NCBI GenBank assembly: GCA_031376085.1
Contig: JANMDA010000227.1
Span: 1-54,215 of the forward strand
DNA: 54,215 bases
Source of the DNA: Chloracidobacterium sp.
Lineage (GTDB): Bacteria > Acidobacteriota > Blastocatellia > Pyrinomonadales > Pyrinomonadaceae
Direction of reading: 5' to 3'
In this document: positions 6,801-23,140 of the stretch, in pieces
How the letters are laid out: each line of letters starts with the position of its first letter
How positions within the stretch are numbered: position 1 is the first letter of the stretch
Program-made: the position numbers and the translations under genes
The notes under the pieces: model-generated
The model's database searches: none
Told to the model about the DNA's origin: nothing
What the model saw: only the letters and a program-made list of their open reading frames with translations

Positions 6801-7832
6801 GTCGTTTGCGTAGATTACATGGCAAGCCGTGCATCCCGCCGAGCGGTAGTCGCCGGCGTGGTCATTCGTCCCGAGAAAATTTAGCGTCGGGTCTAGCAGC
6901 CGCGTTTTTTGCAGGCCGAGATAGACGGGATCAGTGCGGTTGTTAGTGCCGAGGCCACGCTGGCTCAATCCCTTGTCGGGCCTACCGTTGTCTTCGTCCT
7001 TGTCGGGATTTCCAACCTCGAGACGTCGTTTTCCACCGCGTTCGAAAACGCGAAGGATGTTGCCTGGCTGCGATATTTCCCAGCGCGGCAGCGGATAGAG
7101 CGATTCGAGAAAGCCATCTTTTGCCTGCTGTTCGCGTGTCGGGGCAGGTGATTGAAACAACGCCTGCGGCTTGCCGTCTTCGTTATAGCTTTCGCCAAAA
7201 GCAGCGTCCTTGATCGGATAACCGCCGTTGTTATAAAGCGCCGCTCCCCACAGCATCGCTCCGTGTGCCATCATGCTGCGCGGGCTGCGTTTAGTTTCTT
7301 CCGCATGGCAAGTGCCGCACGTTTGAGTGATCACGCGAAAATCACCGGGATTGATAAAACGAACAAAATCACGGCTTTCTTTGGCAAGCAGCGTATTAGT
7401 TCGCTCCGGATTTCTGCTCGAACAGTCGCCATTCTTGCAGCCCCACTCTTTTGGAAACTTCGGCTGGACGTGAGCCTCTGCCTGTGTCGTTGCCGCCGGA
7501 TTACCTCCGTGACACGAAGTGCAGCTTAGATCTTGAGCGTCTTTGCCGTCTTTTAATGTTTCGTAAACATCGCCGCTGCTGTTGTATTTGTGCATCGGCT
7601 CGATATTGTTATGACACTTCAGGCAGCCTTCCATTGGCGGGTCGTCCGTTTTTGTCAGAGGCGCCGGGGCAGCGGGCAGGACTTGACGGTCAGTTTGTGC
7701 GGCGGGCGCGGGTGATGCGTCGTTTAATTTGGCAAGAGCCACGCTCTTCCACAACGCTGCGGCTAAAAAGCAGGCAAAAATGAGCAGGACGATCAGCTTG
7801 ATCCGTTTATGCATGTTCGTAACTGCGGCCAT
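3867..7832 (-). CDS. decahaem c-type cytochrome fused to a C-terminal LVIVD-repeat beta-propeller
   Basis: 10 CXXCH motifs (CLKCH, CTSCH, CGTCH, CTACH, CMTCH, CADCH, CVDCH, CYACH, CFGCH, CSNCH). The C-terminal ~450 aa has at least 6 LVIVD-type repeats ([59 protein letters not shown]). N-terminal signal/anchor [16 protein letters not shown]. The ORF track starts at GTG 7841. I prefer ATG 7832, which sits 8 nt after AAGGAG. Confidence 0.85.
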
Positions 7833-7844
7833 TTTCCTCACTCC

Positions 7845-9956
7845 TTAGAATATTAGTTTCATTTGGCTGAACAGCGAATACTGCGGCTTGGACGGATTGA
7901 CAACGTCGCCCGTGCAGAAATTTGGTATCGGACAATTTCGTGATCTGTCAGTATAAATGTCTTTAAATCCTTTGCCGGCAAAAAAGACGCTTCCGCCAAA
8001 TGTAAATGTCACGTTATTTATCAGCCACGGACGATAAACGACGCCAAGACTGAGATCGCCGCCGATCTCGTGCCTGATGCCGGGCTGGAAAAGTACATAT
8101 TCGAGCGATTCGGTTCGGTGAAAGCGGAGATAATTTGCGTTGAATACCGCTTTCACGGTCTGAGTCAATTCGGCGTCGGCGCCGAGATTGAATATCTCAA
8201 TGCCCGGATTGACGAAATTCGCCTGTCCCTCACTTTTGCTCGAACGAAGTGTCGGTAAAAGGCTGTTGCCCTGAACCAAACCGACTTCGGTCGAAACCAG
8301 GCGAATTCCTTGTCGGTTCCAATATGAAAATTGTCCGCCGACAAAATTCGGATCGTCTAATATTGCGTCGAAACCTTTTGCTTTATCGTCAGTCGGATCG
8401 CTGTCACCTGAGGCGAAGAAAACCGATGCTCGAAAACGCAGCCAATCGCGGTCTATCGAGGCTTCGGCAGCCGCCATGTGCGCCCTGATGTCGGTCCTGC
8501 GGCCAGCTATTGGATTAAATTCGTCGTGGCCAAATGCAAAGTAATACGAATTAGATAAATTCAGCAATCCGATATGGCCATCGCCGTTAAAGCCGACATA
8601 ACCGGCTCGAACATTGTGCTCACGCGCACTGCCGATCAATGCCGGACGAACGAGAAAACCATTTTCGTCATAATGAATGCGGCCGCGATCGTCGTTAAAA
8701 GCTGCTATTGCCTGGATCGTATAGCCCTTGGTCAAAAAATCCTGATGATAGAAATTGGCGATGTAAACATTTTGATGACGCGTGTGAAATGTATTCAGGC
8801 CGCTGTTGGTGTCTTTTTCAAGCTGGTTGAAATAGGCGACGTTGAACTGATTTTTATTATTCGAAAACGCTCCGAAGAAACGTGCGCCTAAGTTATTGTC
8901 CGAATACAAAAATCCGCGAAAATCCGCATTGAACGGCTGAATACCTGCGCGAATAAATGCCGCATCGTAATTGTCATTTGTGTCAAAAAGCTTGACCTCG
9001 GCAAAAGCGTCTTCGAGCGAGGCATGATAATCGGTGCGGTTGGTGCCGCGTCGGACATCGATGTTTACGATGCCGTTCTCACGGGCATTGAGATAATTTG
9101 GAACGCTGAAAGTCGGCGATATTTTTATCGCCCATGCGCGCGGCCTGAAAACAGTGTCGCCCTTAAAGAACTCGAATGAAACCTGAACCGTTTCGTTAAG
9201 CGAAAAACTCTCGGGACGTCCAAAAAAATTATTGCTGTTCGGATCGGCTGTACTGACATTATTACCGGAAGGTGTCCTGCGGATCTCGGCACCTGTCGTA
9301 CTGACACCCGACAAGATCATAAAATACTTGTCGCCGATTGTCGGAAAATCGCCTTTTAAGACATTTCGGTCATAAGGGTTGTACCAGGCGTTTCGTTTAA
9401 ATGGAATGTCGCGTCCACGAGCACCTTTGTCGCCGTAACGATCGTATTCGGGAAATTCATAACGCCAGCGGTCACGAACCTCGCGGCGATCATAGCTGCT
9501 TTTTGCTGTCGTATCGGTCTTTTCGGTTTCATCTGGCTTTGATGAGCTTGTGTTAACGACCTTGAATTCTATTTTTCTCTCGCCGCCGTCGATGATGACA
9601 TTTTCGAGTATCGGACATTTTTCTTTTTTCCTGTCACAAAACACGTTTGAAAAAACGCCGTATTCGTCTGCCTTTCCCGGGCTGAAACGAGCTTCGAAAG
9701 GCAGCCCGACGGATATGCGATAAGCGCCAGCTCCGAGCCGAAAAGAAAATTCGCCGCCCGATCTTGTTACTTTGGTTTCTTCTTCGCCGGATGTTTGATT
9801 GGTGACTATCACAGTCACACCCGCGACCGGTTTGCCGTCGTCGTCAACGACTTTTCCTGAGAGGCGACCGCTGGACGACTGAGCAAGCGTGATTGAGGCT
9901 ATTGATAAAGCGAATAGGGCGAGAAAAAGAACACGTTTTGGAAAACTCAACGGCAT
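7845..9956 (-). CDS. outer-membrane beta-barrel protein with N-terminal carboxypeptidase-regulatory-like domain
   Basis: Signal peptide (LFLALFALSIASITLAQS). Ig-like domain GRLSGKVVDDDGKPVAGVTVIVTNQTSGEE...FSFRLGAGAYRISV. About 550 aa rich in Gly/Asn/Tyr/Phe with alternating hydrophobicity. The C-terminus ...YSLFSQMKLIF ends in Phe, typical of an OMP beta-signal. Its TAA overlaps the Shine-Dalgarno (SD) sequence of the downstream cytochrome gene. Confidence 0.7.
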   Translation of the reverse strand: MPLSFPKRVLFLALFALSIASITLAQSSSGRLSGKVVDDDGKPVAGVTVIVTNQTSGEEETKVTRSGGEFSFRLGAGAYRISVGLPFEARFSPGKADEYGVFSNVFCDRKKEKCPILENVIIDGGERKIEFKVVNTSSSKPDETEKTDTTAKSSYDRREVRDRWRYEFPEYDRYGDKGARGRDIPFKRNAWYNPYDRNVLKGDFPTIGDKYFMILSGVSTTGAEIRRTPSGNNVSTADPNSNNFFGRPESFSLNETVQVSFEFFKGDTVFRPRAWAIKISPTFSVPNYLNARENGIVNIDVRRGTNRTDYHASLEDAFAEVKLFDTNDNYDAAFIRAGIQPFNADFRGFLYSDNNLGARFFGAFSNNKNQFNVAYFNQLEKDTNSGLNTFHTRHQNVYIANFYHQDFLTKGYTIQAIAAFNDDRGRIHYDENGFLVRPALIGSAREHNVRAGYVGFNGDGHIGLLNLSNSYYFAFGHDEFNPIAGRRTDIRAHMAAAEASIDRDWLRFRASVFFASGDSDPTDDKAKGFDAILDDPNFVGGQFSYWNRQGIRLVSTEVGLVQGNSLLPTLRSSKSEGQANFVNPGIEIFNLGADAELTQTVKAVFNANYLRFHRTESLEYVLFQPGIRHEIGGDLSLGVVYRPWLINNVTFTFGGSVFFAGKGFKDIYTDRSRNCPIPNFCTGDVVNPSKPQYSLFSQMKLIF

Positions 9957-10087
9957 AGCGCAAATTCTTCCAACAAAACTTCGGGCAAGATAAAATCAGA
10001 CTTCTTCTTCGGAGTTACTGACAGTCGTTGTAACATAAATTGCGCCTAAATGCCAAGTACTGAAATGACTTGACTATCGGGCGGGTT

Positions 10088-10095
10088 TGTATAAT
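10088..10095 (+). promoter_or_regulatory. extended -10 element (TGTATAAT) upstream of the plus-strand cytochrome operon
   Basis: Perfect TGnTATAAT at 10088-10095, with TTGACT at 10070-10075 but only a 14-nt spacer. It lies just 13 nt before ATG 10109, so it would give a very short leader. Sequence match only. Confidence 0.25.
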
Positions 10096-10108
10096 ATTCA
10101 GAAACATC

Positions 10109-11779
10109 ATGAAAAGTAAACAACTGGTAAGGAAGTTTAAGTTTTTTGCCGGATTTGTGATCTTGCTGATTTTGGGCCTCGATGCATATGCGCAAAATAG
10201 CCTGACGGCTGCTGACGTGCAGCGTATCATTGCCCAGGCGGTTTCCGAAGCCGTCGCGTCTAATCAGAAGGTGACCGTTTCGGTACTTGATAAGGAAGGA
10301 CACGTCTTAGGAACTTTCGTGATGACCGGCGCCGCGCCGACGACCACGATACGCGGCACGGGCAGATCGGGACAAGGTTTTGAGAATGTTACAGTGCCAT
10401 CGCGCTTTGCGTCGCTTTCAAAAGCCGGCACAGGTGCGTTGCTTTCATCGGGCGGCAACGCTTTCTCGACTCGAACCGCGTCGTTTATCATTCAGGAACA
10501 TTTTCCAGCGGGTATCGATAATACACCCGGCGGGCCGCTGTTTGGCGTGCAGTTTTCGTCGTTGAAATGTTCGGATGTTGTTATAGCCGGACTTCCACTT
10601 GGTTTGTCAGGCGATGCGGGTGGAATACCGCTTTACAAAAATGGTGTTGAGGTTGGCGGTGTCGGGGTTGAGGGCGACGGCTTGTATACGGCTGACACCA
10701 ATCCGAGAGACAACGATCAATCTTACGAAGAGAGAATAGCCGTCGCGGCTTCGCGTGGGTTTGAGGCTCCGGCGTTGATTCGCGCCGATAATATTCTTGT
10801 CGCTGGGCTTCGCTTTCCGTTTGCGAATATTAATGTTTCCGATTTTCCGGTTGCGACCGCGATTCCATTCGGCATTTTGCCCGGAGCGGTAGATCCGTCG
10901 GACCCGATCATCGCTGCTCCGGCGAGTGATTTTATTGCAAGAACATTGAACGGCGTCAGCGGACAGGCCAGTTCGCGGTTTCCGACCATAGCAGGCTCGG
11001 CTCTTACCGTCGCCGAGGTCGATTCCGTACTGGGAGCCGCAGCAGGTATTGCCAATATTACGCGGGCAGGCATTCGCCAGCCACTCGGCAGCAATGCACG
11101 CGTCAATATTTCCGTTGTCGATACCGATGGCAAAGTCCTTGGGTTTTTCCGGCAGCTTGATGCTCCGGTATTCGGCTTTGACGTGTCTGTGCAGAAGGCT
11201 CGCTCGGTGAATTTTATATCACGCACCGATGCTGGTGCGAAACTGAGCGCGAACGGGTTTGGTTCTTATGTAGCGCGGGCAAATGCCGATGGTATTGCTC
11301 TCAACGGAACTATCGCATTTAGCGACAGAGGTTTTGGCTTTTTGCATCGTCCGCTGTTTCCCGACGGCATAAACGGAACAGATGCCGGGCCGTTCAGCAA
11401 AATATTGGCCGATTTCAGTCCTTTTAATAACGGGCTGCAAGTCGATCTGATCTTTACCAGGGTTACGACGCCGATGCCGATGTGCCGCGGCGCGGTTATG
11501 GAAAAGCGGATGGTATTACCGCCGCAATGTCAGTGCACAACAATTTCGGAATTGAAAAACGGCTTACAAATATTTGCGGGCGGCATTCCGCTTTATCGCG
11601 GCAGCACGCTTATCGGCGCAATCGGTATCAGCGGTGACGGTATTGAGCAGGACGATCTGATCGCAGCCGGCGGAGCAAACTTGTTTCCCGTACCAGTGGC
11701 TATGCGGTCCGACAATTTCTTTGTTCGCAACGTGCGTCTTCCATTTGTAAAGTTTCCACCCAGGCCATTTTTACCTTAA
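10109..11779 (+). CDS. secreted protein with two GlcG/HbpS-like (DUF336, haem-binding fold) domains
   Basis: Signal peptide MKSKQLVRKFKFFAGFVILLILGLDAYA|Q. Two copies of the DUF336 signature: AADVQRIIAQAV...VTVSVLDKEGHVLG...GGIPLYKNGVEVGGVGVEGDG and VAEVDSVLGAA...VNISVVDTDGKVLG...GGIPLYRGSTLIGAIGISGDGIEQDD. Start moved from the track's 10070 to the ATG that precedes the signal peptide. Confidence 0.7.
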   Translation: MKSKQLVRKFKFFAGFVILLILGLDAYAQNSLTAADVQRIIAQAVSEAVASNQKVTVSVLDKEGHVLGTFVMTGAAPTTTIRGTGRSGQGFENVTVPSRFASLSKAGTGALLSSGGNAFSTRTASFIIQEHFPAGIDNTPGGPLFGVQFSSLKCSDVVIAGLPLGLSGDAGGIPLYKNGVEVGGVGVEGDGLYTADTNPRDNDQSYEERIAVAASRGFEAPALIRADNILVAGLRFPFANINVSDFPVATAIPFGILPGAVDPSDPIIAAPASDFIARTLNGVSGQASSRFPTIAGSALTVAEVDSVLGAAAGIANITRAGIRQPLGSNARVNISVVDTDGKVLGFFRQLDAPVFGFDVSVQKARSVNFISRTDAGAKLSANGFGSYVARANADGIALNGTIAFSDRGFGFLHRPLFPDGINGTDAGPFSKILADFSPFNNGLQVDLIFTRVTTPMPMCRGAVMEKRMVLPPQCQCTTISELKNGLQIFAGGIPLYRGSTLIGAIGISGDGIEQDDLIAAGGANLFPVPVAMRSDNFFVRNVRLPFVKFPPRPFLP

Positions 11780-11783
11780 TACA

Positions 11784-12587
11784 ATGCGTAGTCTTTGTTG
11801 GTGTCTTCTTATCGGCTTAGTTTTGCTCTCCGGCTGTCAGGCGGTGTTTGCACAGGCAATTCCCGCAACCGCCGGTGCATTGATCGTCAATGGCCGCGCA
11901 AAAATGGCTTCTAAAACGGTCATTCTCAAAAAAAAGAGGTTCTATCTTTTCCGTGGCGACCGTGAAGCAAATAAAACATTAATTGAAAAACTCAAGGCTG
12001 CGAATGTGGCTTCGCGCAACTGCTTTTATTACCAGTTGAAGGCAAGTGCCGAATTTATGGACTGGCTCAAAACTGGCGATTGCGAATCTGTCCATTGCCG
12101 CGAGATCACACAGGAAGACATCACAAAAGTGCCGGAGTTTCGAGACGCAAAAAAAAAGGGATTAGAAGGGCCAAGAAATTTCAATAAAAAACCGGAACTT
12201 GCGACTAAATGGCTCGTCACAAATCTCGAACCGGGCTTCCGTTCAGGATTTTATGATGCGCGAAAAGCAATGATCGAAGGGTTGCTCAAAGATATGTCCG
12301 AAGATCGACTTCCCGTTCAATCTGCAATGACGGACAACGGCTCATCAGCATTGGCAAATTTTTCTAATATAGTTTTAAAAACTACGGTCGAAAAATTTAT
12401 TTTTGCGAATCTAGTCCCGATTGAACTCGGTGAAAGAAGTTATGTTTGGGTCTGTGAAGTGGATGTTGGAAAAGACAAGAAAACCCCAATCCTTGATATG
12501 CCGGAAAGCAGTAAGGTGGTCAAAAAATGTGAAATAATCGTCCGCGATCTGCCCGTTTGTAAAGCAGGGATGTGTGAGCAGAAATGA
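11784..12587 (+). CDS. Cys-rich lipoprotein of unknown function
   Basis: Signal peptide ending in lipobox L-S-G-C (LVLLSGC). Nine further Cys residues. No recognisable domain. Stop and start overlap (ATGA) with the next cytochrome gene. Confidence 0.6.
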   Translation: MRSLCWCLLIGLVLLSGCQAVFAQAIPATAGALIVNGRAKMASKTVILKKKRFYLFRGDREANKTLIEKLKAANVASRNCFYYQLKASAEFMDWLKTGDCESVHCREITQEDITKVPEFRDAKKKGLEGPRNFNKKPELATKWLVTNLEPGFRSGFYDARKAMIEGLLKDMSEDRLPVQSAMTDNGSSALANFSNIVLKTTVEKFIFANLVPIELGERSYVWVCEVDVGKDKKTPILDMPESSKVVKKCEIIVRDLPVCKAGMCEQK

Positions 12588-13666: not shown

Positions 13667-13676
13667 TTAGAAAAAG

Positions 13677-14585
13677 ATGAAAAACGGGACGCGTTCAAAA
13701 TACATATTGAAAGCTGTGCTCGTTTTCGGCAGCGCAGTTCTTTTTGCCGCAGCTTGCCTTCAGCAGGCGGCGAAGTCGCCGGTGACGCTAACTTCGGCGG
13801 AAACGCCCGATCCAATTCCGCAGCGGGTATCAAGCAAGACGTTCGAAGCCTTTTCGCATAAAATTCCCGAGCACACGCAGTTTGCCTGCAACACTTGTCA
13901 TTTTCGCGAGGAGCGCGGAGTCAAGAGCCAGTTGGGCGGTCATGAATCCTGCATCGGCTGCCATTTGAATCAGTTTGTGGACGAAGATCAAGTCATGTGT
14001 GCGATTTGCCACACAGATACGAAAGGACAAGATCCGCCGGTCAAGGCATTTCCCGCGAAGTTTATCGAGGGTTTCAATATGAAGTTTGACCACGCGGCCC
14101 ATGAAAAAGGCGCCGCTCGCCCTGCTGAAGGATGCGCGGCTTGTCATGACCCTTCCGGGCCGGGGAAAACGATACCAGTCGGTTTTCAGGCACATGCCAA
14201 TTGCTACGGATGCCATACGGCGGAGAGCAAGCTCGGCCAGTGCAGCGTATGCCACGAGCTGGCGCCTTACAACCGAACGCTTCAGTCAGAGTATTCATTC
14301 AAGTCGATCTTCCGCCACGGCGACCACAAAATGGACTGCAACGAATGTCACAATGTCATTGCCGGTGTGCCGAACGCCCGACAAGTGACCAACATTCAAA
14401 TACTCGAACACAGGACGAGCCCCGGCAACAATTGCCTTCAATGCCACAACGGCAGACGTGCCTTTACCGGCAATAATAGCCTTGATGTAACAAGTTGCGC
14501 TCGTTGCCACGGCGGTGCAGTCTACACAAAGCTGCCATCGGGAACATATGCAGACACTGCCGAGGAAGCACCGGCTGAAAATTAA
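13677..14585 (+). CDS. periplasmic nonahaem c-type cytochrome (c3/c7-like), possible lipoprotein
   Basis: Signal peptide (weak lipobox FAAAC) plus 9 CXXCH motifs (CNTCH, CIGCH, CAICH, CAACH, CYGCH, CSVCH, CNECH, CLQCH, CARCH) and KFDHAAH. Confidence 0.9.
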   Translation: MKNGTRSKYILKAVLVFGSAVLFAAACLQQAAKSPVTLTSAETPDPIPQRVSSKTFEAFSHKIPEHTQFACNTCHFREERGVKSQLGGHESCIGCHLNQFVDEDQVMCAICHTDTKGQDPPVKAFPAKFIEGFNMKFDHAAHEKGAARPAEGCAACHDPSGPGKTIPVGFQAHANCYGCHTAESKLGQCSVCHELAPYNRTLQSEYSFKSIFRHGDHKMDCNECHNVIAGVPNARQVTNIQILEHRTSPGNNCLQCHNGRRAFTGNNSLDVTSCARCHGGAVYTKLPSGTYADTAEEAPAEN

Positions 14586-14592
14586 AGGCATT

Positions 14593-15282
14593 ATGAAAAA
14601 AAGCGCCAAATTGATCGTGATCTTTGTCTTCTCTCTGTGCGTTCTTTCCATTTTTTTGAGCGACAGTAATTTTGCAGGAACCGGCTCGGCGGGATTTTCA
14701 CACGCTTCCCAAACTCCTACACCGCTATCTCCAAAGGAAACAGTGGCCGTAACCGTTTCACCAACGTTGCAGCCATCGCAAACGGCAATTCCGACAAAGA
14801 CAACGACAATGCCTTCTGGGAACAGCACGTCTTTGGCCACTGCGTCGCAATCAGTGAAGAAAGATCTCTGCGCTTTAGATGAGACCGGAGAAAAGGGTGT
14901 TGTGCGGTTTGATCACGACGCGCACGCGTTTATTCCTAGTTATAGTGAAGATGGAAAGTCACCTGCCGGGTGCGTCGTATGTCATCACACCGATAAGCCG
15001 CCCGCCCGGAGCGTGCCCATGAAGTTTGAACTTTGGAAAGACTGGAAGGGTGACGAGAAGAAGGTAAAGAATTGTAAGGAATGCCATTTTCCGCTCGGCG
15101 ATATTCCGGAAGGCAAGGAGATGCTCGTCTTTAAGGGTAAAGATTATGACGACGAGAGGGCCTATCACGAAAATTGCACTGTCTGTCACGCTCAGGCCGC
15201 GCAGCGTCCTGCTTTCAAACCCAAATCCGGTTTTGTGACCAAGGTCTCAGGAGAATGCGTCCATTGTCACATATCGCCGTAA
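14593..15282 (+). CDS. membrane-tethered tetrahaem cytochrome c3-like protein with Ser/Thr/Pro-rich linker
   Basis: MKKSAKLIVIFVFSLCVLSIFLS anchor or signal, about 85 aa of low-complexity T/S/P-rich sequence, then RFDHDAHAF and 4 CXXCH motifs (CVVCH, CKECH, CTVCH, CVHCH). Start moved from 14515 to ATG 14593. Confidence 0.85.
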   Translation: MKKSAKLIVIFVFSLCVLSIFLSDSNFAGTGSAGFSHASQTPTPLSPKETVAVTVSPTLQPSQTAIPTKTTTMPSGNSTSLATASQSVKKDLCALDETGEKGVVRFDHDAHAFIPSYSEDGKSPAGCVVCHHTDKPPARSVPMKFELWKDWKGDEKKVKNCKECHFPLGDIPEGKEMLVFKGKDYDDERAYHENCTVCHAQAAQRPAFKPKSGFVTKVSGECVHCHISP

Positions 15283-15351
15283 AAAATACCGACGGTCGTG
15301 CCGAACACCAAAAATATTGACTTCGAATTAAAAAGACGTTTTAATAGCGTT

Positions 15352-16113
15352 ATGAAAAACACGGCTAAATTGATAGTAATTTCTGTTTTTGCACTGGGTG
15401 CTTTGTTTGTTTTTTTGAGTGGCAATAATTACTACAAAATCGATGCGGCTGGTTTTTTTGTAGCGATGGCGCAGCCGACTCCGCCAAAAAATAAAAACAC
15501 AAATTCTTCAGGCGCAAACAGCAACACAAAACCGATAGCTGGAAATACAGCTGCAAATGCGAATGTTGTAAAAACAATGCCTGCAATGACGGCCACTCCT
15601 GCAACGGTTCCGGCAAATACCGCCTCAAATACAAGTACAGTTCCACCATCAACAGGAGGCAAATCGATCCCAAAATCGTTTACCTTGGGACTGGACAGTC
15701 AGTCGGAATATGGCGAGGCCGCTTTTGATCATGATACTCACGCTTTTAAGAATTACAGCCCGGATGGAAAATCGGTAATGGGCTGCGTCGAATGTCACCA
15801 TACAGATCAACCCAAATCGGCATTAAAACTGCCCTATGTTACGTCAGAACGGAATGAGACATTGACGTTTGATGTGTGGCAGAAGTCCTCACAAAAAGTC
15901 AGCAGCTGTCGGGATTGTCATTTTCAGGACGGAAATGTTCCGGATGGAAAAACAATGCCGACATCCGGCAGCAAAGACCTAAATAATCAGCTCGCATACC
16001 ATATCAACTGTAATTCATGTCATGACGCCGCGTTTAAGGCGCGTCCGGAATTAAAAACTCACAAAGGGTTTGCAACCTCAAAAGACTGCGCCGTTTGCCA
16101 CAAAACGAGTTAA
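15352..16113 (+). CDS. membrane-tethered tetrahaem cytochrome c3-like protein (tandem paralogue of 14593-15282)
   Basis: MKNTAKLIVISVFALGALFVFLS anchor, about 100 aa of N/T/A/P-rich low-complexity sequence, then AFDHDTHAF and 4 CXXCH motifs (CVECH, CRDCH, CNSCH, CAVCH). Start moved from GTG 15298 to ATG 15352. Confidence 0.85.
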   Translation: MKNTAKLIVISVFALGALFVFLSGNNYYKIDAAGFFVAMAQPTPPKNKNTNSSGANSNTKPIAGNTAANANVVKTMPAMTATPATVPANTASNTSTVPPSTGGKSIPKSFTLGLDSQSEYGEAAFDHDTHAFKNYSPDGKSVMGCVECHHTDQPKSALKLPYVTSERNETLTFDVWQKSSQKVSSCRDCHFQDGNVPDGKTMPTSGSKDLNNQLAYHINCNSCHDAAFKARPELKTHKGFATSKDCAVCHKTS

Positions 16114-16117
16114 CCGA

Positions 16118-16561
16118 ATGGCCTTGCGGCAATGCGACAAATGTAGTGAAATGGTTGACGAGGCCAAGGCATTTTGCCCTGGTTGCGGCAACGCTTTTGT
16201 AGAGGAAGAGAAAAGGCAGGAAGCATCGAAGTTCGAGAAATTGGAACACACTGTCCAATTCGGCCAGACGATGTATAACCAGATGCTCGAGGATATGGGG
16301 CTGAATATCTCCAACGCACCAAATCCTGTAGAAAGACGCGTCGAGGTGATCGCTCCGGTAAATACGGAAATTACTGCTCCTGCAAAAGCTGCGGTGACCG
16401 TCGCAGTGCCGCCTGCCGTAAAGACGCCGGAAGTAAGCGTAACATCGTCGAGCAATATAAAGTGGTATATTCTTATCGGCGCCGCTGTTATTTTGCTTTT
16501 ACCGATCGCTCTAGCATCTGCGATCTTGCTTGTTTTAGATATCTTGTCGCGCTTAAAGTAA
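16118..16561 (+). CDS. zinc-ribbon protein with C-terminal transmembrane anchor
   Basis: N-terminal CDKC-x12-CPGC zinc-ribbon, an Ala/Pro/Val-rich linker, and a C-terminal helix WYILIGAAVILLLPIALASAILLVLDIL. Start placed at ATG 16118. Confidence 0.55.
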   Translation: MALRQCDKCSEMVDEAKAFCPGCGNAFVEEEKRQEASKFEKLEHTVQFGQTMYNQMLEDMGLNISNAPNPVERRVEVIAPVNTEITAPAKAAVTVAVPPAVKTPEVSVTSSSNIKWYILIGAAVILLLPIALASAILLVLDILSRLK

Positions 16562-16593
16562 GGCATAAAATTTATCGATCGTCCTAACTCACA

Positions 16594-17193
16594 ATGCCAC
16601 GTGTAATAGAAAACCACGAGCAGATAGTAGAGGCATTTCAAAATGTTGACATCGTATCCGAACTAGTTGAAAAACTGCCAAACGGCGAGTTTCGGAACGA
16701 GCTTGACATGGATATTATCTTGTTCGGCCGCAGCTATCGCGGTAAACAGGTCGGTCCCTACACGCGTCTCCTCGAATTTCTGCCCGGCGAAATAATAGTC
16801 GAAGAAAACTCCTGGGAAAGCAGCATCTTTTACATCCTCGTAAAAGGCGATCTCGAAGCCTCGATCACTGACGAAAACGGAAAACAAAAAAAGGTTGGAG
16901 CGATCCCGGCCGGCAACTCATTTGGTGAAATGGCCTTGCTTTCCGGAACGCCGAGAACCGCGACTGTCTCAGTTGCTTCGAAAGGTGAACCTGCGCTTGT
17001 TCTGGAATTTACCCGTCCGGCAATACGGCTACTGCGAAAACTGCCGAAATTCGGCAAAGCTCTCGACCGCAATTATCGGGCATACGGGCTGACGCTCACT
17101 TTGAATGACCTTAAAGATTTCAGGCATCTCGATCTTGACCCCGCATTGCTGCAGCGTTTGAATGACGCCGCGCGTTTCGCGGTCTATGAATAG
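16594..17193 (+). CDS. cyclic-nucleotide-binding domain protein; N-terminal fragment of a longer gene interrupted by in-frame TAG 17191-17193
   Basis: cNMP-binding signature FGEMALLSGTPRTATVSVAS. The C-terminus ...AARFAVYE* stops inside the start of a second cNMP-binding domain, which continues in the same frame at 17194. Confidence 0.7.
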   Translation: MPRVIENHEQIVEAFQNVDIVSELVEKLPNGEFRNELDMDIILFGRSYRGKQVGPYTRLLEFLPGEIIVEENSWESSIFYILVKGDLEASITDENGKQKKVGAIPAGNSFGEMALLSGTPRTATVSVASKGEPALVLEFTRPAIRLLRKLPKFGKALDRNYRAYGLTLTLNDLKDFRHLDLDPALLQRLNDAARFAVYE

Positions 17194-17199
17194 GATCAT

Positions 17200-19077
17200 G
17201 TGCTGTTTCGCGAAGGCGACCCTGTAAATCGAGTCGTTTTTGTTCGAAATGGTTGGATACAGCGTGTAAGCGGCGTCGAATTTAACCCAAAGGCAGCTGA
17301 TATTTTGCTCGAATCAGACGAGTCGGTCGGACTCGATTTTCTCGGGGCCGGCAGCTGCCTCGGCCTCGAATCAATAGAGAAATCAGGCAACTGGAGCTAT
17401 ACGGCCACCGTTCGCTCTCGAAGTGAGGTGCTTGAGATCGCTATTTCAAGGCTTCGTGAAGATACCGGTATGAGCTCTGCGGTCATGCCTTTCTTACGGT
17501 CTTCGTCCGGGGCAGACGATTCAAATACGCCATCGCACCCTTCCGATACACGCGTAATAACCGCTGCCAGCCGTGAGATCGAAACCGGTGTTGTCGACGG
17601 CGTAAATCTGCTGGTAATGGACATGGCCAAGTGCATCCGCTGCGGCAACTGTTCGCTTGCGTGCCACAAGGTTCATGGTAATTCGCGCCTGACCAGACGC
17701 GGTATTCATATCGAACGGCCATTCAAAGCAAACAAACCGGCGATCCAAAGCGTCTTGGTGCCGACGGTTTGCATGCATTGCCAGGATCCGGAATGCCTGA
17801 CCGGCTGTCCGACCGGTGCGATCGCCCGCTTTCCGAACGGCGAGATCGACATCAATCCCACAACCTGCATAGGTTGCGGCGACTGCGCTACGCAATGTCC
17901 GTACAATGCCATTTCTATGATTCCCCGGCCTGATCCCAAAAATGCGAATGGCAAAGGAGTGGTTTCGAATCTCTTTTCGGCGTTCTCGCTCAGCGAAGCA
18001 AAAATGCCCGAGCCTGTCGAGCAAACAGAAAACTTGCTTGCCGTAAAGTGCAATCTTTGTCACGACACGGGAATGAATCCGAAGGGTGCAAAGACCGAAG
18101 CCTACTCGTGCGAAGAAAATTGTCCGACCGGCGCACTTGTTCGTGTAAACCCGCGCGAGTATTTTGACGAGGTAAACCAGGCGATTGGATTCATACAGCG
18201 GACCGAAACTCACGCGATCGGTGTCAATATACATAAATTCGATCTAAAGGCGACTATCTGGCATGTGATCGGTGTTTTTTTTGTTTTGGTACTCGGCGGC
18301 TTAGCTGTGTGGGCTACACGCTTTTTTGCACAAGATATTCCGTTGAGTACCGGCGGTTGGATGACGATGCGGTGGTTAACGGGACTTACTGGTTTGGTGA
18401 GCATCGTTTGGGTGATGGCCTATCCGCTTAGAAAACAGGTCTATCGCCGCCGAGCAGGAGCGTTGAGATATTGGATGCTTTCGCATATCTATCTGGGCGT
18501 TTTGGCTGGCGTTGTATTGTTGGTTCACGGCGGTACAAGCTCAGGCGGTTTATTGACCACGGCTTTGATGATCTCGTTCGATATGGTGATAGCCAGCGGG
18601 CTTTTCGGTGCCGCGTGCTACATCATTGTGCCGCGTTTTATGACTAAGATCGAACGCGAGCCTCTGCTTTTAGAAGACCTCGAAGCCCGCCGCGAAGAGC
18701 TCCGAGCCGAACTTGTTCGTGCAACCGAGCAAACTGCTAATGAAGAGCTTCATGTGTTGATCCAAAGAAAAGTACGTCGCCGTTTCCTCGGGCTGGGTTA
18801 CCTAATCCGGCAGTATTTTAAGAAAGAAGATTTGCCGACAATGCTGGCCGATGCCCGTGAAGAATTTCGCTCGGCGGCAGAAAAGATGAGCCGTTCCGAT
18901 GACGCGCGATTGATGGAAGCGGTCGAAAATGCTGCGACGCTGCGCCGTGTCGATGCACTTTGTTATCTTCACCAGTCACTTAAGTTGTGGGTCGCACCGC
19001 ATGTGCTGTTTACGGCTTTGATGTTAGTGCTTATGTTGATCCATATAGTTCAGGTTGTTTATTTTAATGTTCGATGA
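17200..19077 (+). CDS. cNMP-binding / 4x[4Fe-4S] ferredoxin / putative di-haem-b membrane protein (continuation of 16594-17193)
   Basis: (D)HVLFREGDPVNRVVFVRNG... is a cNMP-binding barrel. Four Cys clusters: CIRCGNCSLAC, CMHCQDPECLTGCP, CIGCGDCATQCP, CNLC...CEENCP. Five predicted TM helices, two of them with His-x13-His (His codons at 18484/18526 and 19000/19042). The only in-frame start after the TAG is GTG 17200. Confidence 0.75.
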   Translation: MLFREGDPVNRVVFVRNGWIQRVSGVEFNPKAADILLESDESVGLDFLGAGSCLGLESIEKSGNWSYTATVRSRSEVLEIAISRLREDTGMSSAVMPFLRSSSGADDSNTPSHPSDTRVITAASREIETGVVDGVNLLVMDMAKCIRCGNCSLACHKVHGNSRLTRRGIHIERPFKANKPAIQSVLVPTVCMHCQDPECLTGCPTGAIARFPNGEIDINPTTCIGCGDCATQCPYNAISMIPRPDPKNANGKGVVSNLFSAFSLSEAKMPEPVEQTENLLAVKCNLCHDTGMNPKGAKTEAYSCEENCPTGALVRVNPREYFDEVNQAIGFIQRTETHAIGVNIHKFDLKATIWHVIGVFFVLVLGGLAVWATRFFAQDIPLSTGGWMTMRWLTGLTGLVSIVWVMAYPLRKQVYRRRAGALRYWMLSHIYLGVLAGVVLLVHGGTSSGGLLTTALMISFDMVIASGLFGAACYIIVPRFMTKIEREPLLLEDLEARREELRAELVRATEQTANEELHVLIQRKVRRRFLGLGYLIRQYFKKEDLPTMLADAREEFRSAAEKMSRSDDARLMEAVENAATLRRVDALCYLHQSLKLWVAPHVLFTALMLVLMLIHIVQVVYFNVR

Positions 19078-20498
19078 GCAAGAAAACAGGAAAATTTACA
19101 GTCTCATATGCCGATCTGCTTCTCCAGACAAGATCGGTCGAGAAAGATGGCATCTATATTGGACGGCTGGAAACCTGTGAGGTCTTTTTAGATCATAAGA
19201 CCGTTTCGCGAATTCATGCGGGCATCAATTTTCAGGACGAAAATTACAATTTAGTAAATCTCTCGACATCAAATGTCCTAACGCTTAACGGCCGCCGTCT
19301 AGCATCGAAACAATCCGATGTCCTGGCCGACGGCGATACTATTCAGATCGGCCCGTTTACTATACTTGTCGCCCGTCTCGGCGATGAATTATTGTTGGTC
19401 GTCGATCAGCAATTTGCAGAGCGGACACCTCAGGGAGTGTTACATTCCCCTCAGGCCGCAAAGCCTTCTGCGGCTGAAGAAGCCGGAGGTGTCTTAGACG
19501 TATTTTGGGAAAAGCGTTCGCGAGACAAGGACGACTGGGGAACACGCCTTCGCCCGACGGAGAAACCAAAACCGGGCAAGGCAATGTTCAATTGGAAGCC
19601 AACGCGCGATCTACGGCCCACATGGCGAGCTGGATTATTTATTTGGGCATTTCTCATAATCGGTGCACTAGGCGTGTATGCGTTTTTTCGCCACCCGGAA
19701 ACCTATGCACCAAAACCTCTTTCAAATCCTCATGCCTCGAAGATCGAGAACAGCGTGATCGCCGCAGCAGCCAACGGAAACTCTTGCACGACATGTCACA
19801 CACTCAATGAAGGGGTCGAAAATTCCTGTATCAAATGTCATTCGGCGTCAGAATTTCACTCGACCAATACAAAGGCACACGAGCAAGCGGGCATAACCTG
19901 CACGATGTGTCACCGCGAACATCAGGGAGCCGATTTTGATATAATAGCGACTGCTATTCAAACATGTTCCGAATGTCATAACGACAAAAACTCAAATACT
20001 TACAAAGGGAAAACTGTTCACACCGCACACGAGGGCTCTTACGGTTACCCGGCGATTGGCGGCATCTGGAAATGGAAAGGTGTTTACCGCGAAGTTGCCG
20101 AAGCGATACCGGAGATCAATCGCAGCGCGACCGGCGACAAAGATGAACAGGCAAAATTGAGCCGTCAGTTTCATACTGTTCACTTATATCGCCTACAGGT
20201 GCCCGAACCATTAAAAGGTGACAAACGCGGTCTTGTAACGTGTTCCACATGTCATGATAGTTTCGGTACGGCTATCGACAGAGTGAAGCCGCGTCAAACC
20301 TGCGCAGCTTGCCATACGACACAGGCAGATGCGGCGAACCGTGACAAGCGTTTTAACGCAGGCGGTGCAAATTGTATTTCCTGCCACGTTCAGCATCCAT
20401 ACAGCACAGGAAGATGGAGCGAATTTCTAACCACGGACGCTTTAGACAGGCGAAAAGAAGCGATCACGAGTAAGATCAACCAACTTAGCGGACAATGA
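19074..20498 (+). CDS. FHA domain - single TM - heptahaem c-type cytochrome fusion
   Basis: N-terminal FHA signature (IGR...VSRIHAGI...LVNLSTSNVLTLNGRRL...GDTIQIG). TM helix AGLFIWAFLIIGALGVYAFF. Seven CXXCH motifs (CTTCH, CIKCH, CTMCH, CSECH, CSTCH, CAACH, CISCH). ATGA overlaps with both neighbouring genes. Confidence 0.85.
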   Translation: MSKKTGKFTVSYADLLLQTRSVEKDGIYIGRLETCEVFLDHKTVSRIHAGINFQDENYNLVNLSTSNVLTLNGRRLASKQSDVLADGDTIQIGPFTILVARLGDELLLVVDQQFAERTPQGVLHSPQAAKPSAAEEAGGVLDVFWEKRSRDKDDWGTRLRPTEKPKPGKAMFNWKPTRDLRPTWRAGLFIWAFLIIGALGVYAFFRHPETYAPKPLSNPHASKIENSVIAAAANGNSCTTCHTLNEGVENSCIKCHSASEFHSTNTKAHEQAGITCTMCHREHQGADFDIIATAIQTCSECHNDKNSNTYKGKTVHTAHEGSYGYPAIGGIWKWKGVYREVAEAIPEINRSATGDKDEQAKLSRQFHTVHLYRLQVPEPLKGDKRGLVTCSTCHDSFGTAIDRVKPRQTCAACHTTQADAANRDKRFNAGGANCISCHVQHPYSTGRWSEFLTTDALDRRKEAITSKINQLSGQ

Positions 20499-22390
20499 AA
20501 TTTTTTCATCTCTTCATTTGCGTTGTGCTCATCGGCTTTTTGATCTGGCTGAACCAGACGTTTGTCCCGGCGGACGTTACTCATTACGGCGGGCTGTCGT
20601 GGATCGGTTGGGCAAGCATTTTGTTTGTCGGTTTCGGCATCGGACTTCTCTTTGTATTTAATGATTCGTCACGCGCCTTTGGTTTCTTTAAAGCTCGCGA
20701 TGAGAAGGCCGCTCCGCCGACAAATATTCGAACGCTCTCGAAAGTGGAGCTTACCGAACTAGGCCTCGACAAATACCGCGGGCCGAGTTATCCGCACCCT
20801 GTGATTTTCCCGGAAAGATGCATCGGCTGTCAGGCTTGTGTCGATGCTTGTCCTCATGACGTGCTTGCGATCGTCGATGGAACTGCTTCGGCGGTTGCTC
20901 CCGACCTTTGCATGGAGGACACTGCCTGTCAGGCGGAATGTCCCGTTAATCCAAAAGCGTGCATTATCATCAACACGGCTAAGGATGTGCGCTCGCTTCC
21001 GACGCCGACGCGCGATGGGTCAACTTTTCAAACCAATGTGCCCGGATGTTTTATCATCGGCGATGTTTCCGGCGTTCCGCTGATCAAGAATGCGGTGAAG
21101 GAGGGTGCAGATGTAATTACCCATATTGTTGATGAACTAAAGCGCGCGCCACAGGAACCTAAGGCGGATTACGATGTAGCGATCATCGGCATCGGCCCGG
21201 GCGGAGCATCCGCAGCGGCCTCGGCTCAAGAGGCCAATCTTCGATATGTCGGTATCGAACAGGATAAGATATTGTCCACCATCGACCTGTATCCGAAAGG
21301 CAAATATATTTTCTTCAAACCAGATACAAAGGACTGGTCGGGAGGCATTCCGGTCACGGGCCTTGGCCTTTCAAAGGCTAAATACGGCGGCGGAGAAAGT
21401 GATGACGATCAGCCGATCTTTGACGCATTGGGACAAGACCTAAACACGATCGTGCATGAACAGGCCTCTGTGCTTCACAGCGAAATGATCACAAAGATCT
21501 CAACGTCACTCCATAAAAAACTTTCGCCAAAGCTGTCTGAAAAGCTTGAGAAGGAGTTGAAGAAACGTATTGCCGGTTATCTGCGTTCAAAAGGCTCGGC
21601 TGACTGGGCGAAGATTTTTCAAACGCAGTTCCTTAACGAACAAAATAATCTGTTACCGGTTTTCCGCTCCGATATAGCCGATCAGCTTCAAACCAAAATT
21701 CCGGGCGATCAGCGCGAGAACATTCTCGACATATGGCTCGGCAGCCTGAATGAGAAAGGAGTAAAGATCAACGAAAATGAAAGCTGCAAAACGGTAAATC
21801 GAGCCGAGGACGGCGATTATTTTGTGATCAATACCGAACGCAGCACTGAAAAATCTCCACAGACATACAAGGCACGACGAGTGATCATTGCCATCGGACT
21901 TCGCGGTGCGCCGAACAAACTTCGGCTGCCAAATGAAGATCTGAAATTTAAGATCGAAGGCCGCGAAGAACAAAAGGTCATCTATGGACTGTCAAATCCT
22001 GATGATTTTTGGGGAAACCGCATAATTGTCGTTGGCGGCGGTAATGTCGCCGTCGAAGCCGCCGTAGATCTGGTCGCCACACGCGACGGAGCTGCGATCA
22101 CTCCGCGAACGCCTGAGACAATGAATAAAGTGACATTGCTGGTTCGCGACTATCTTGCTCCAACGGTTAAGTTTGGAAATAAATTTCAACTTTACCAATG
22201 CGCTGATAACGGCATCATCGACCTGCAGTTCGGTGCAGGCATCAAGGAAATGCGCGAAAATGAAGTCGTGTTGGAAGATGTAAAAACTAAGAAGGAACTG
22301 GAAACGATCCCGAACGATTACATTTTTGCGCTAATCGGCGGCGAGAGGCCGAACAGGTTTTTAGAATCGATAGGTATTACGATCAAGTAG
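20495..22390 (+). CDS. membrane-anchored 4Fe-4S ferredoxin / FAD-NAD(P)-binding oxidoreductase
   Basis: Two N-terminal TM helices. CIGCQACVDACP and CQAECP ferredoxin motifs. GCFIIGDVSGVPLIKNAVKEG (FAD 'GD' motif). YDVAIIGIGPGGASAA (GxGxxG). IIVVGGGNVAVEAAVDL (second dinucleotide fold). Confidence 0.8.
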   Translation: MKFFHLFICVVLIGFLIWLNQTFVPADVTHYGGLSWIGWASILFVGFGIGLLFVFNDSSRAFGFFKARDEKAAPPTNIRTLSKVELTELGLDKYRGPSYPHPVIFPERCIGCQACVDACPHDVLAIVDGTASAVAPDLCMEDTACQAECPVNPKACIIINTAKDVRSLPTPTRDGSTFQTNVPGCFIIGDVSGVPLIKNAVKEGADVITHIVDELKRAPQEPKADYDVAIIGIGPGGASAAASAQEANLRYVGIEQDKILSTIDLYPKGKYIFFKPDTKDWSGGIPVTGLGLSKAKYGGGESDDDQPIFDALGQDLNTIVHEQASVLHSEMITKISTSLHKKLSPKLSEKLEKELKKRIAGYLRSKGSADWAKIFQTQFLNEQNNLLPVFRSDIADQLQTKIPGDQRENILDIWLGSLNEKGVKINENESCKTVNRAEDGDYFVINTERSTEKSPQTYKARRVIIAIGLRGAPNKLRLPNEDLKFKIEGREEQKVIYGLSNPDDFWGNRIIVVGGGNVAVEAAVDLVATRDGAAITPRTPETMNKVTLLVRDYLAPTVKFGNKFQLYQCADNGIIDLQFGAGIKEMRENEVVLEDVKTKKELETIPNDYIFALIGGERPNRFLESIGITIK

Positions 22391-22393: not shown

Positions 22394-23140
22394 ATGAGAA
22401 AAGATAATATTATGTTTGCCATGCTTGGCCTGGTCGCAGGCCTCGCTATCGGATTTATCGGTGCCAACAGCATCAATAGATCAACCTTTGAAAAACAGCC
22501 TGCTTCTATGGCCTCTAGCGGCGAGTCAAACAGCAATCCGGCACTTCCGCCAAATCATCCGCCGCTCAACAATTCGGCCAGTAATTCATCTCAGAGCGAT
22601 CCGCGTCCGGAAGTGATGGTTGCGATCGAAAAGGCAAAAGCACAGCCGCAGAATTACGAAGCTCAAATGACGGCTGCCGATCTCTATTATCAGATACAGC
22701 GTTTTGACGAAGCGGCAAAATTTTATGAGGCGGCGGCAAAATTAAAACCTGCCGACATCGAACCGATGATAAAAGCAGGGAACGCCTTTTTTGATGCTGC
22801 ACAATTGGCCGCTGAGAATGATGACGATAAAGTCGCGACGCCAACGTTTGTGCTTGCGGAAAAATGGTATCAACAAGCTCTTCAAAAAGAGCCAAGGAAT
22901 TTAAGTGTAAGGACAGATCTCGGTTTGACATTTTTCCTTCGGATTCCGCGCGATGTTGATCGGGCGATCAAAGAGTTCAAGACATCGTTAAGCATTGACC
23001 CCAACCATGAGAAAAGCCTACAGAATCTTGCAACTGCTTATAAAGAAAACGGCGATAAAGAAAACTATCAATCAACGATAGAAAAGCTAAAAAAGATAAA
23101 TCCGAACAATCCCCTCTTTACAAAAACCGAGACAAAATAA
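22394..23140 (+). CDS. membrane-anchored TPR-repeat protein
   Basis: N-terminal helix MFAMLGLVAGLAIGFIGA, a low-complexity linker, then TPR-like repeats (AADLYYQIQRFDEAAKFYEAAAKLKPADIE, AEKWYQQALQKEPRN, AIKEFKTSLSIDPNHEKSLQNLATAY). Confidence 0.7.
   Translation: MRKDNIMFAMLGLVAGLAIGFIGANSINRSTFEKQPASMASSGESNSNPALPPNHPPLNNSASNSSQSDPRPEVMVAIEKAKAQPQNYEAQMTAADLYYQIQRFDEAAKFYEAAAKLKPADIEPMIKAGNAFFDAAQLAAENDDDKVATPTFVLAEKWYQQALQKEPRNLSVRTDLGLTFFLRIPRDVDRAIKEFKTSLSIDPNHEKSLQNLATAYKENGDKENYQSTIEKLKKINPNNPLFTKTETK

Follow-up and report, generated by a model that had tools for sequence, protein, structure and literature searches.

How electrons might pass from cytoplasmic carriers straight across the inner membrane to multihaem cytochromes c is the question raised by a gene of Chloracidobacterium sp. 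(Acidobacteriota; Blastocatellia; Pyrinomonadaceae), located in contig JANMDA010000227.1 of GenBank assembly GCA_031376085.1. The whole stretch analysed, here called the window, is 54,215 nucleotides long. It contains an open reading frame (ORF) at 17200-19077 (+), with a GTG start and 625 amino acids (aa), which together with the shorter ORF before it makes up the target gene of this study. From the sequence alone, an earlier reading of this DNA, the original prediction, had proposed a cytoplasmic iron-sulphur (FeS) module joined to a membrane domain holding two haems b, through which electrons would cross without an obvious quinone step. This interpretation as a transmembrane dihaem conduit is supported by the sequence analyses below, and comparative genomics strengthens it considerably. 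In our judgement the gene product is probably a regulated conduit, in which electrons of NAD(P)H travel over FeS clusters and two haems b to periplasmic multihaem cytochromes c. It would be a modular inner-membrane redox protein composed of two CRP-type cyclic-nucleotide-binding (cNMP) domains, a four-cluster FeS wire and a five-helix membrane domain. Bis-His dihaem transfer across membranes is already known; the fold of the membrane part is unclassified, and the regulatory modules are arranged in an unusual architecture.

The membrane domain and its histidine pairs

The membrane domain lies at 18202..19074 (+) and belongs to an uncharacterised family. The AF2 model built from a 40-sequence domain alignment (predicted local distance difference test score, pLDDT, 92.1; predicted TM-score, pTM, 0.84) has five long transmembrane (TM) helices, as the original prediction had said, and six cytoplasmic helices between the fourth and the fifth; a model of the 625-aa ORF gave a pLDDT of 82.5 and a pTM of 0.79. 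On the plus strand the TM helices are at 18244-18324 (TM1), 18367-18438 (TM2), 18463-18531 (TM3), 18550-18633 (TM4) and 18991-19071 (TM5), and the cytoplasmic helical region is at 18634-18984. Two of the helices each carry a His-x13-His pair: H429 (codon 18484-18486) and H443 (18526-18528) in TM3, spanning 18484..18528 (+), and H601 (19000-19002) and H615 (19042-19044) in TM5, spanning 19000..19044 (+). The codon starts given earlier for the four residues (18484, 18526, 19000 and 19042), with each pair 14 positions apart, are exact by direct inspection.

Family members were collected with a full HMMER scan, using residues 335-625 against 1.84 billion cluster representatives at E<=1e-3, which returned 1,482 clusters at 50% identity. 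They include fusions of ~825 aa, other fusions of 620-950 aa, one protein of 1,277 aa and many standalone proteins of 265-320 aa. In every member the membrane domain forms the C-terminus of the protein, and the helical region between TM4 and TM5 is always included. That region had been described as a charged helical insert of ~110 aa. It is charged and helical (about 115 aa, with 22 K/R and 22 D/E), but it is integral to the domain and no insertion, because it is present in every family member, standalone forms of ~280 aa included.

Alignments of 53, 40 and 32 sequences, reaching down to ~20% identity, are invariant at the four His and at a single Gly of TM4 (G467), with no indels between the paired His. 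Conservation in homologues was one of the properties on which the original prediction had staked its reading of the four residues, and they are invariant throughout the 53 sequences (the TM3 pair in 53/53 and 40/40). Residues G395, R411, W425, G470, P478 and W597 are nearly invariant, and both His helices share the pattern W-x3-H-x13-H. Another, that the His should not face the lipid, was approached by proxy. Conservation moments calculated without the His point within 10 degrees of the His face in TM3 (permutation p=0.017) and within 34 degrees in TM5 (p<0.0002); the conserved faces of both helices coincide with their His faces, which argues against lipid-facing His. Topology was read from the loop charges: six K/R lie in the TM2-TM3 loop, as against none in the TM1-2 and TM3-4 loops. 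This positive-inside distribution indicates an N-in topology, which therefore places H429 and H601 at the cytoplasmic ends of TM3 and TM5 and H443 and H615 at the periplasmic ends. The periplasmic loops are short, about 8-13 residues, and hold no WWD-type motif.

The domain therefore offers two invariant His pairs, ~14 residues apart on interior faces, with one His per helix at each membrane face, which is the arrangement of a dihaem transmembrane cytochrome b. In cytochrome b and NOX such an arrangement holds two stacked bis-His haems, and from the spacing two haems stacked ~21 Å apart (14 residues x 1.5 Å) would be expected here as well. The inner haem b would be ligated by H429 of TM3 and H601 of TM5, and the outer haem b by H443 of TM3 and H615 of TM5. 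Alternatively the His could bind no haem, and instead hold a non-haem metal (di-iron, Cu or Zn) or line an ion path, in which case the protein would be a transporter or sensor under FeS and cNMP control. We consider this very improbable, even though the domain has no significant homology to any haem protein. The paired His cannot share one metal site, because at 1.5 Å per residue they are ~21 Å apart; the geometry fits two sites at opposite membrane faces, each served by TM3 and TM5. Moreover, the family signals described next are only to dihaem cytochromes, and the gene partners are all redox proteins.

For residues ~335-625 no Pfam or NCBIfam family reached its threshold. Among the 53 relatives there are sub-threshold Pfam signals on the His helices, to DUF4405 (7 members, best 2.3e-4), Ni_hydr_CYTB (5 members, best 2.2e-4) and Ferric_reduct (3 members, best 1.3e-3). 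The best relatives scored 21.5 bits against a cut-off of 30.1 for PF01292 and 19.8 against 26.7 for DUF4405 (PF14358), each on a single His helix. A Pfam search of the window protein gave no match to PF01794, and the NarI/DsrM family PF02665 is absent from the window protein, among the families listed for the 53 relatives (25 of 29) and from 10 standalone relatives at E<=1. A comparison with NarI/DsrM/HmeC, ferric-reductase and DUF4405 models had been suggested at the outset; its yield is nothing for NarI/DsrM and sub-threshold signals only for ferric reductase, DUF4405 and Ni_hydr_CYTB. A phmmer search of PDB sequences found weak matches only, to DUOX1 (E 0.31) and FdnI (E 2.8); in the former, RKQVYRRRAGALRYWMLSHIYLGVLAGVVLLVHGG aligned with the NOX-type haem helix. 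The family profile found nothing among PDB sequences but coiled-coil noise from the helical region. By every sequence criterion applied the membrane domain looks dihaem-b-like; that it belongs to FRD, cytochrome b561, DUF4405 or NarI is not established.

The ferric-reductase superfamily (NOX/DUOX, FRE, STEAP and MsrQ; PF01794) offers a likeness in its bis-His pairs on TM3 and TM5, its x13 spacing and its direction from the cytoplasm to the outside. In NOX, electrons from a cytoplasmic NAD(P)H-linked module cross the membrane without a quinone, and the proposed NAD(P)H-linked cytoplasmic input and transmembrane transfer would be similar; the DUOX1 helix RRR..FW..H..LLIIHG has a weak echo in the window protein. 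PF01794 proteins differ in having six TM helices and a TM5 pair spaced x12-13, whereas the window domain has five, with the ~115-aa cytoplasmic helical region before the last. The proposed donor also differs, being an FeS wire instead of a fused FAD/NADPH domain, as does the proposed acceptor, a multihaem cytochrome c instead of O2, Fe(III) or MsrP.

The cytoplasmic domains and the stop codon

Between the cytoplasmic cNMP domains and TM1 lies a cytoplasmic four-cluster [4Fe-4S] ferredoxin-like domain (17602..18159, +). The four ferredoxin-type Cys motifs claimed for it were all located, with 16 Cys in the groups C145/148/151/155, C191/194/199/203, C223/226/229/233 and C284/287/304/308; the patterns CxxCxxCxxxC, CxxCx4CxxxCP, CxxCxxCxxxCP and CxxCxnCxxxCP fit the four groups. 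All 16 Cys are at least 90% conserved in homologues. Two Pfam families are above threshold, Fer4_11 (33.2 bits versus 26.2) and Fer4_7 (47.1 versus 27), and mark a Fer4 region of the dicluster or four-cluster kind. When the model of the 625-aa ORF was compared with PDB by Foldseek, the FeS domain matched HycB (7z0s_B, 8e-7) and ArrB (6cz7_B, 1e-5), and also HDCR (7qv7_B) and PsrB (2vpw_B, 4e-4). None of the NCBIfam equivalogs NrfC, DsrO, ArrB, DmsB and HybA reached its cut-off, the best being ArrB (65.8 versus 450) and DsrO (65.3 versus 200). On the model and the motifs, the domain is predicted to be a four-cluster wire of the HycB/ArrB/PsrB type. It resembles the HycB, ArrB, PsrB, NrfC, DmsB and FdnH subunits in its four Cys groups with 16 Cys, its Fer4_11 match and its structural matches. 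Unlike these subunits, it has no catalytic partner subunit or NrfD-type anchor; unlike the HycB/ArrB/PsrB class, it forms one chain with a haem-type membrane domain of its own and with cNMP sensors.

The fourth motif contains the string CNLCH (ORF residues 284-288, window 18049-18063). It was considered as a c-haem site and ruled out, as it lies inside the cytoplasmic FeS motif IV. Scripts that count c-haem CxxCH sites will return it as a false positive.

Upstream of the FeS domain are the cNMP domains. Domain 1, within 16594..17190 (+), scores 51.8 bits with Pfam cNMP_binding (cut-off 27.5) and has the canonical phosphate-binding cassette FGEMALLSGTPRTATV. Domain 2 is degenerate; its remaining part in the 625-aa ORF, at 17200..17457 (+) or ORF residues 1-86, scores 31.1 bits, and as read from the sequence (LGAGSCLG...WSYTATV) it has neither the cassette Glu nor the Arg. 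Only domain 1 has both the score and the FGE...R[ST]A cassette of the full PF00027 definition, because domain 2 is without the cassette Glu and Arg and is interrupted by a TAG codon. In a split homologue from Nitrospinota the FGE...RTA cassette is kept in both domains. Foldseek matched the cNMP domain of the 625-aa model to CRP, CLP, Vfr and FNR. The absence of a signal or Tat peptide was borne out: no signal peptide is present, and the N-terminus of orthologues consists of the two cytoplasmic cNMP domains.

The original prediction had placed both cNMP domains on one polypeptide. This is not so in the window, where the ORFs 16594-17193 and 17200-19077 share a frame and are parted by one in-frame TAG (17191..17193, +) that interrupts domain 2 (FAVYE*DHVLFREGDP) of a gene of ~828 codons with no other break. 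Orthologues are intact: more than 80 from Pyrinomonadaceae are unbroken proteins of ~826 aa in which Lys takes the place of the stop. The N-terminal fragment of the interrupted gene (16594..17190, +) is collinear with residues 1-199 of 827-aa orthologues, and the closest homologues are single uninterrupted proteins of 824-830 aa with Lys at the TAG position. A search with the full-length alignment as query returned 80 loci, all from metagenome-assembled genomes (MAGs) of Acidobacteriota (Pyrinomonadaceae/Blastocatellia, some labelled Chloracidobacterium), and in all 80 of these GTDB species-representative loci the match is full-length or limited by a contig end. Among Pyrinomonadaceae and other Blastocatellia, no fewer than 80 GTDB species have the fused form. 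Judging from the Lys in orthologous proteins, a single-base change of AAG to TAG would explain the stop.

Two explanations of the TAG were rejected. Recoding was ruled out because TAG ends other window genes normally (e.g. at 22388-22390) and orthologues have Lys. Old pseudogene decay was ruled out by the ratio of nonsynonymous to synonymous changes (pN/pS) against an 87%-identical orthologue (locus L008), which is 0.10 upstream of the TAG and 0.08 downstream. Since pN/pS is low on both sides and species representatives are intact, the lesion is very recent, a population variant, or an error of sequencing or assembly. It is nevertheless quite possible, if not what we favour, that this copy is a dead gene, in which the protein ends after cNMP domain 1 because of the TAG and nothing downstream of it is produced; the family itself may still work as proposed. 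The stop falls in frame and inside a domain, TAG is a normal stop in the window, and the only in-frame start downstream is the GTG at 17200. Against a dead gene stand the low pN/pS on either side, the lack of other lesions and the intact species-representative orthologues elsewhere; for a single-base change, it is at least as likely that the sequencing or assembly is in error or that the variant is very recent.

Partner genes and the proposed electron path

The target belongs to a co-directional run of genes encoding four multihaem cytochromes c, a zinc-ribbon/TM protein, the target itself, an FHA-heptahaem protein, a ferredoxin-flavoprotein and a TPR protein. Recurrence of these neighbours was counted in 37 Pyrinomonadaceae/Blastocatellia loci with full flanks. 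Directly downstream of the target in 37/37 loci is the FHA-heptahaem gene (19074..20498, +), whose product has a cytoplasmic FHA domain, one TM helix (residues 183-207) and a periplasmic heptahaem cytochrome c (Pfam FHA and Cytochrom_c3_2; seven CxxCH). The ferredoxin-flavoprotein (20495..22390, +; 29/37 loci) has two N-terminal TM helices, a 2x[4Fe-4S] ferredoxin and a FAD/NAD(P)H oxidoreductase (Pfam Pyr_redox_3, Pyr_redox_2 and Fer4), and is the probable electron input. ATGA start/stop overlaps join the target to the FHA-heptahaem gene (19074-19077) and the latter to the flavoprotein gene (20495-20498), suggesting translational coupling of the three membrane-anchored partners. The last gene of the run encodes a TPR protein with an N-terminal TM helix (22394..23140, +; Pfam TPR; 22/37 loci, and also loci L001-L003).

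The four secreted or anchored multihaem cytochromes c upstream, at 12584-13666, 13677-14585, 14515-15282 and 15298-16113 (+), have 9, 9, 4 and 4 CxxCH (Pfam Cytochrome_C7, CIII and MtrC/MtrF), and homologues occur in 32/37 loci. The two tetrahaem cytochromes (14515-15282 and 15298-16113) are paralogues with N-terminal anchors and long low-complexity linkers rich in Thr, Pro, Ala and Asn. For both, the listed GTG start probably lies too far upstream; MKKSAKL and MKNTAKL are the likely starts. Directly upstream of the target is the gene of a small zinc-ribbon protein (16070..16561, +; CxxC…CxxC; sub-threshold in Pfam; present in 15/37 loci) with a Pro/Ala/Val-rich linker and a C-terminal TM helix at residues 128-163.

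Farther upstream, a 569-aa HbpS-like protein, of a haem-binding or haem-degrading type (10070-11779, +; Pfam HbpS-like 1.8e-18), is followed by a 267-aa secreted protein of unknown family, encoded upstream of the cytochromes within 10070..12587 (+); homologues occur in 24/37 and 26/37 loci, respectively. The HbpS-like protein may be a further conserved component of the module. Such long HbpS-like proteins (529-569 aa) recur beside the module, both here and in the very distant locus L090 (8653-10242), where the gene follows it. Two genes on the minus strand, both present also in L001-L003, form a divergent pair (3867..9956, -) of candidate outer components. One (7845-9956, -) encodes a 703-aa protein that has a signal peptide and, by Pfam, a CarboxypepD_reg domain at its N-terminus; the remaining ~620 aa match no family, and the protein has no relative among PDB sequences. 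The other (3867-7841, -) encodes a 1,324-aa secreted decahaem cytochrome c with an LVIVD beta-propeller repeat found by Pfam, ten CxxCH and weak SH3 similarity. The decahaem protein is a candidate terminal or extracellular component, and the 703-aa protein might be its outer-membrane porin-like partner. The 1,324-aa protein also has partial similarity to ExtM of the Geobacter selenite/tellurite-reduction operon (NCBIfam, 6e-17, far below cut-off). The neighbourhood as a whole has 43 CxxCH sites.

In other lineages the same parts are split and recombined. In L004, L005 (from a Nitrospinota MAG), L088 and L089 the cNMP+Fer4 part is a gene of its own, directly before a standalone membrane gene. 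Over residues 22-530 of the fused protein, the cNMP-FeS protein of L005 is collinear with it (E 6e-46), and the alignment stops where the membrane domain begins. In L090 the flavoprotein is fused to the cNMP-FeS protein and is followed by the membrane gene, an FHA–multihaem–FHA protein and the HbpS-like gene; in L088 the FHA domain is fused to the Fer4–Pyr_redox protein. The NAD(P)H flavo-FeS modules found in L005, L006, L088, L090 and L091 differ in family (Pyr_redox, Glu_synthase-FMN or NuoE/F-like): that of L005 is a Glu_synthase-type FMN/Fer4 protein, and that of L091 is of the NuoE/NuoF-like NADH-dehydrogenase type, in a locus with multihaem cytochromes on both sides of the membrane gene. 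In protein P0134 a heptahaem domain, 33% identical to the FHA-cytochrome of the window (E 5e-30), is connected with the membrane domain at the latter's N-terminus, through a single additional TM helix. Three things are constant across loci: a flavo-FeS input of NAD(P)H type, the FeS wire together with the 4-His membrane protein, and periplasmic multihaem cytochrome c. The cNMP and FHA modules shift between partners. Beyond Acidobacteriota this spread is documented by a few named proteins, from Nitrospinota and Polyangiaceae; a profile search with the standalone subfamily, limited by its word-index prefilter, returned nine proteins.

The module of L006 (ENA contig_157197, 2993-17007) comprises cNMP, Fer4, Fer4-membrane fusion and Fer4-Pyr_redox proteins. 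Around it lie fragments of Ser/Thr kinases, a PP2C phosphatase and an FHA protein, which fits phospho-Thr control.

We propose the following path. NAD(P)H would be oxidised by the membrane-anchored ferredoxin-flavoprotein (20495-22390), in which electrons would move from FAD to two FeS clusters. They would continue through the four FeS clusters of the target protein to the inner haem b and the outer haem b, and from there to the heptahaem cytochrome c of the FHA protein (19074-20498) and on to other multihaem cytochromes; the final acceptor is presumably extracellular or periplasmic. An outward direction is assumed from redox potentials and from the membrane potential, which would help electrons outward. 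No energy would be conserved and no protons pumped; we propose a gated electron outlet under cNMP and FHA control, serving redox balancing, with cAMP or cGMP acting on domain 1 and phospho-Thr recognised via FHA. The motifs with their conservation, the signals of topology, the linkage of the genes and their fusions and splits elsewhere are observed; haem binding, direction, donor, acceptor, the gating by cNMP and FHA and the independence from quinone are points that we infer.

Several points weigh against this path. The direction of flow is argued solely from thermodynamics. Foldseek of the membrane-domain model against PDB gave no match at E<=1e-3, and none to NOX, STEAP or DUOX; the best hits (E 0.12, TM-score ~0.25) were unrelated four-helix bundles, a result that is weak negative evidence because all-helical bundles are hard for Foldseek. 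Comparison of the family profile with E. coli MsrQ (probability 0.4%) and YodB by hhalign gave no alignment, with single-sequence templates and low sensitivity, so that homology to known dihaem proteins is unproven. The window copy has its premature TAG and may be inactive in the host organism. Finally, most characterised prokaryotic dihaem-b subunits (FdnI, NarI, SdhC/FrdC and CybB) have quinone sites.

This last point, together with Ni_hydr_CYTB among the sub-threshold signals, speaks for a quinone-coupled enzyme, in which the dihaem domain would pass electrons between the FeS wire and membrane quinone, and any exchange of the multihaem cytochromes with the quinone pool or the outer haem would be secondary. 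Such an enzyme would resemble the dihaem succinate:quinone oxidoreductases, or run opposite to FdnI/NarI. We think it unlikely: no quinone-related family reaches its score on the membrane domain (NarI/DsrM gives nothing), and the cluster has no NrfD-like or other quinone-handling gene. A direct protein acceptor is suggested instead, because the heptahaem cytochrome c adjoins in 37/37 loci and is fused in P0134.

Very little credence is due to a third possibility, that the protein handles haem as CcsBA and CcmF do, holding it transiently for delivery or reduction in c-cytochrome maturation. The four invariant TM His, the many CxxCH sites nearby and the recurrent HbpS-like gene would fit such a role. 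The periplasmic loops are too short to match it, however, and lack a WWD-type motif; the constant FeS and NAD(P)H-flavoprotein partners fit steady electron flow better than haem export, and paired x13 spacing on two helices is a dihaem signature.

Related systems and the rest of the window

A literature search for this domain combination found only one preprint (bioRxiv 10.1101/2023.11.21.568154), which describes a ptdABCDEFG operon in marine Alpha- and Gammaproteobacteria, Nitrospirales and Planctomycetes whose function 'remains completely unknown'. Its products are given there as a pentahaem cytochrome (PtdA), a porin (PtdB), an oxidoreductase that binds FAD/NAD(P) (PtdC), a cNMP-FeS protein (PtdE) and a TM 'ferric reductase-like' protein (PtdF), along with multihaem cytochromes; the preprint includes no analysis of His ligands or mechanism (bioRxiv 10.1101/2023.11.21.568154). 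Compared by description, the list of parts and the local order match the window (cNMP-FeS, membrane protein, multihaem cytochrome c and NAD(P)-flavoprotein): the genes at 16594-22390 and 12584-16113 fit the described set, and the split loci L004, L005, L088 and L089 look alike in arrangement. The target gene looks like a PtdE–PtdF fusion by description. The window differs in that PtdE-like and PtdF-like parts are fused into one protein of ~826 aa, with four FeS clusters versus two. Its cytochromes are hepta-, nona-, tetra- and decahaem, with FHA and LVIVD domains, and no pentahaem cytochrome was found in the window set (4, 4, 7, 9, 9 and 10 CxxCH). The host also differs, being a soil member of Pyrinomonadaceae and not a marine proteobacterium or one of the Nitrospirales.

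Similar logic is found in better known systems. Sulfate reducers have the TmcABCD, HmcABCDEF and DsrMKJOP complexes, in which periplasmic cytochromes c are connected by a membrane cytochrome b to cytoplasmic FeS proteins. The shared order, with transmembrane transfer, is periplasmic multihaem cytochrome c, membrane haem b and cytoplasmic FeS. These complexes use a NarI/DsrM-type cytochrome b (PF02665) and HdrD-like CCG FeS proteins, whereas the window protein has no PF02665 signal and carries an FeS domain of the HycB/PsrB type; relative to these complexes, the cNMP and FHA modules are a new feature.

Electron exit to periplasmic or extracellular cytochromes is known for few model organisms, where it proceeds via quinol dehydrogenases. 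CymA of Shewanella and ImcH, CbcL and CbcBA of Geobacter are the inner-membrane entry points to periplasmic multihaem cytochromes, CbcL and CbcBA consisting of dihaem b and multihaem c. The likeness to the window is the passage of electrons from the inner membrane to periplasmic multihaem cytochromes. The difference is that these enzymes have no cytoplasmic FeS/flavin module, whereas the partners in the window point to an NAD(P)H donor and the quinone pool would be bypassed.

We suggest tentatively, and with less confidence than we have in the conduit itself, that the family is the inner-membrane core of a widespread, unrecognised respiratory bypass, a quinone-independent NAD(P)H:multihaem-cytochrome-c oxidoreductase, modular in build and switched by cNMP and Ser/Thr phosphorylation. 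If true, it would be a prokaryotic 'NOX for extracellular acceptors', whose interchangeable units would be an NAD(P)H flavo-FeS input, a four-cluster FeS wire, a dihaem-b fold of five helices that is new, and an anchored multihaem cytochrome c. The step from cytoplasm to periplasm that is still missing from extracellular electron transfer would thereby be supplied for Acidobacteriota, Nitrospinota and marine Ptd lineages. Such a route from NAD(P)H would be distinct, would conserve no energy and would need regulation, which the cAMP/cGMP and FHA modules would fit. As the family is large, lies outside Pfam and NCBIfam and has no solved structural relative, one biochemical characterisation would annotate thousands of genes, and would be relevant to redox balancing and to how metals or humics are reduced by the abundant Acidobacteriota of soils and by marine carriers of Ptd.

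The rest of the window, from 23 to 54 kb, holds an unrelated polysaccharide-biosynthesis cluster. At 27874-52988 it is of the exopolysaccharide/nonulosonic-acid type, with Poly_export/SLBB, GNVR-AAA_31 tyrosine-kinase-like, NeuB, UDP-GlcNAc 2-epimerase and ABC transporter genes. It includes at least two full-length asparagine-synthase paralogues, and a third, weaker Asn_synthase-like ORF lies just upstream (23164-24930, -). At the other end of the window, a 976-aa protein (784-3714, -) combines a beta-helix with dockerin and cohesin, a cellulosome-type set that is unusual for an acidobacterium.

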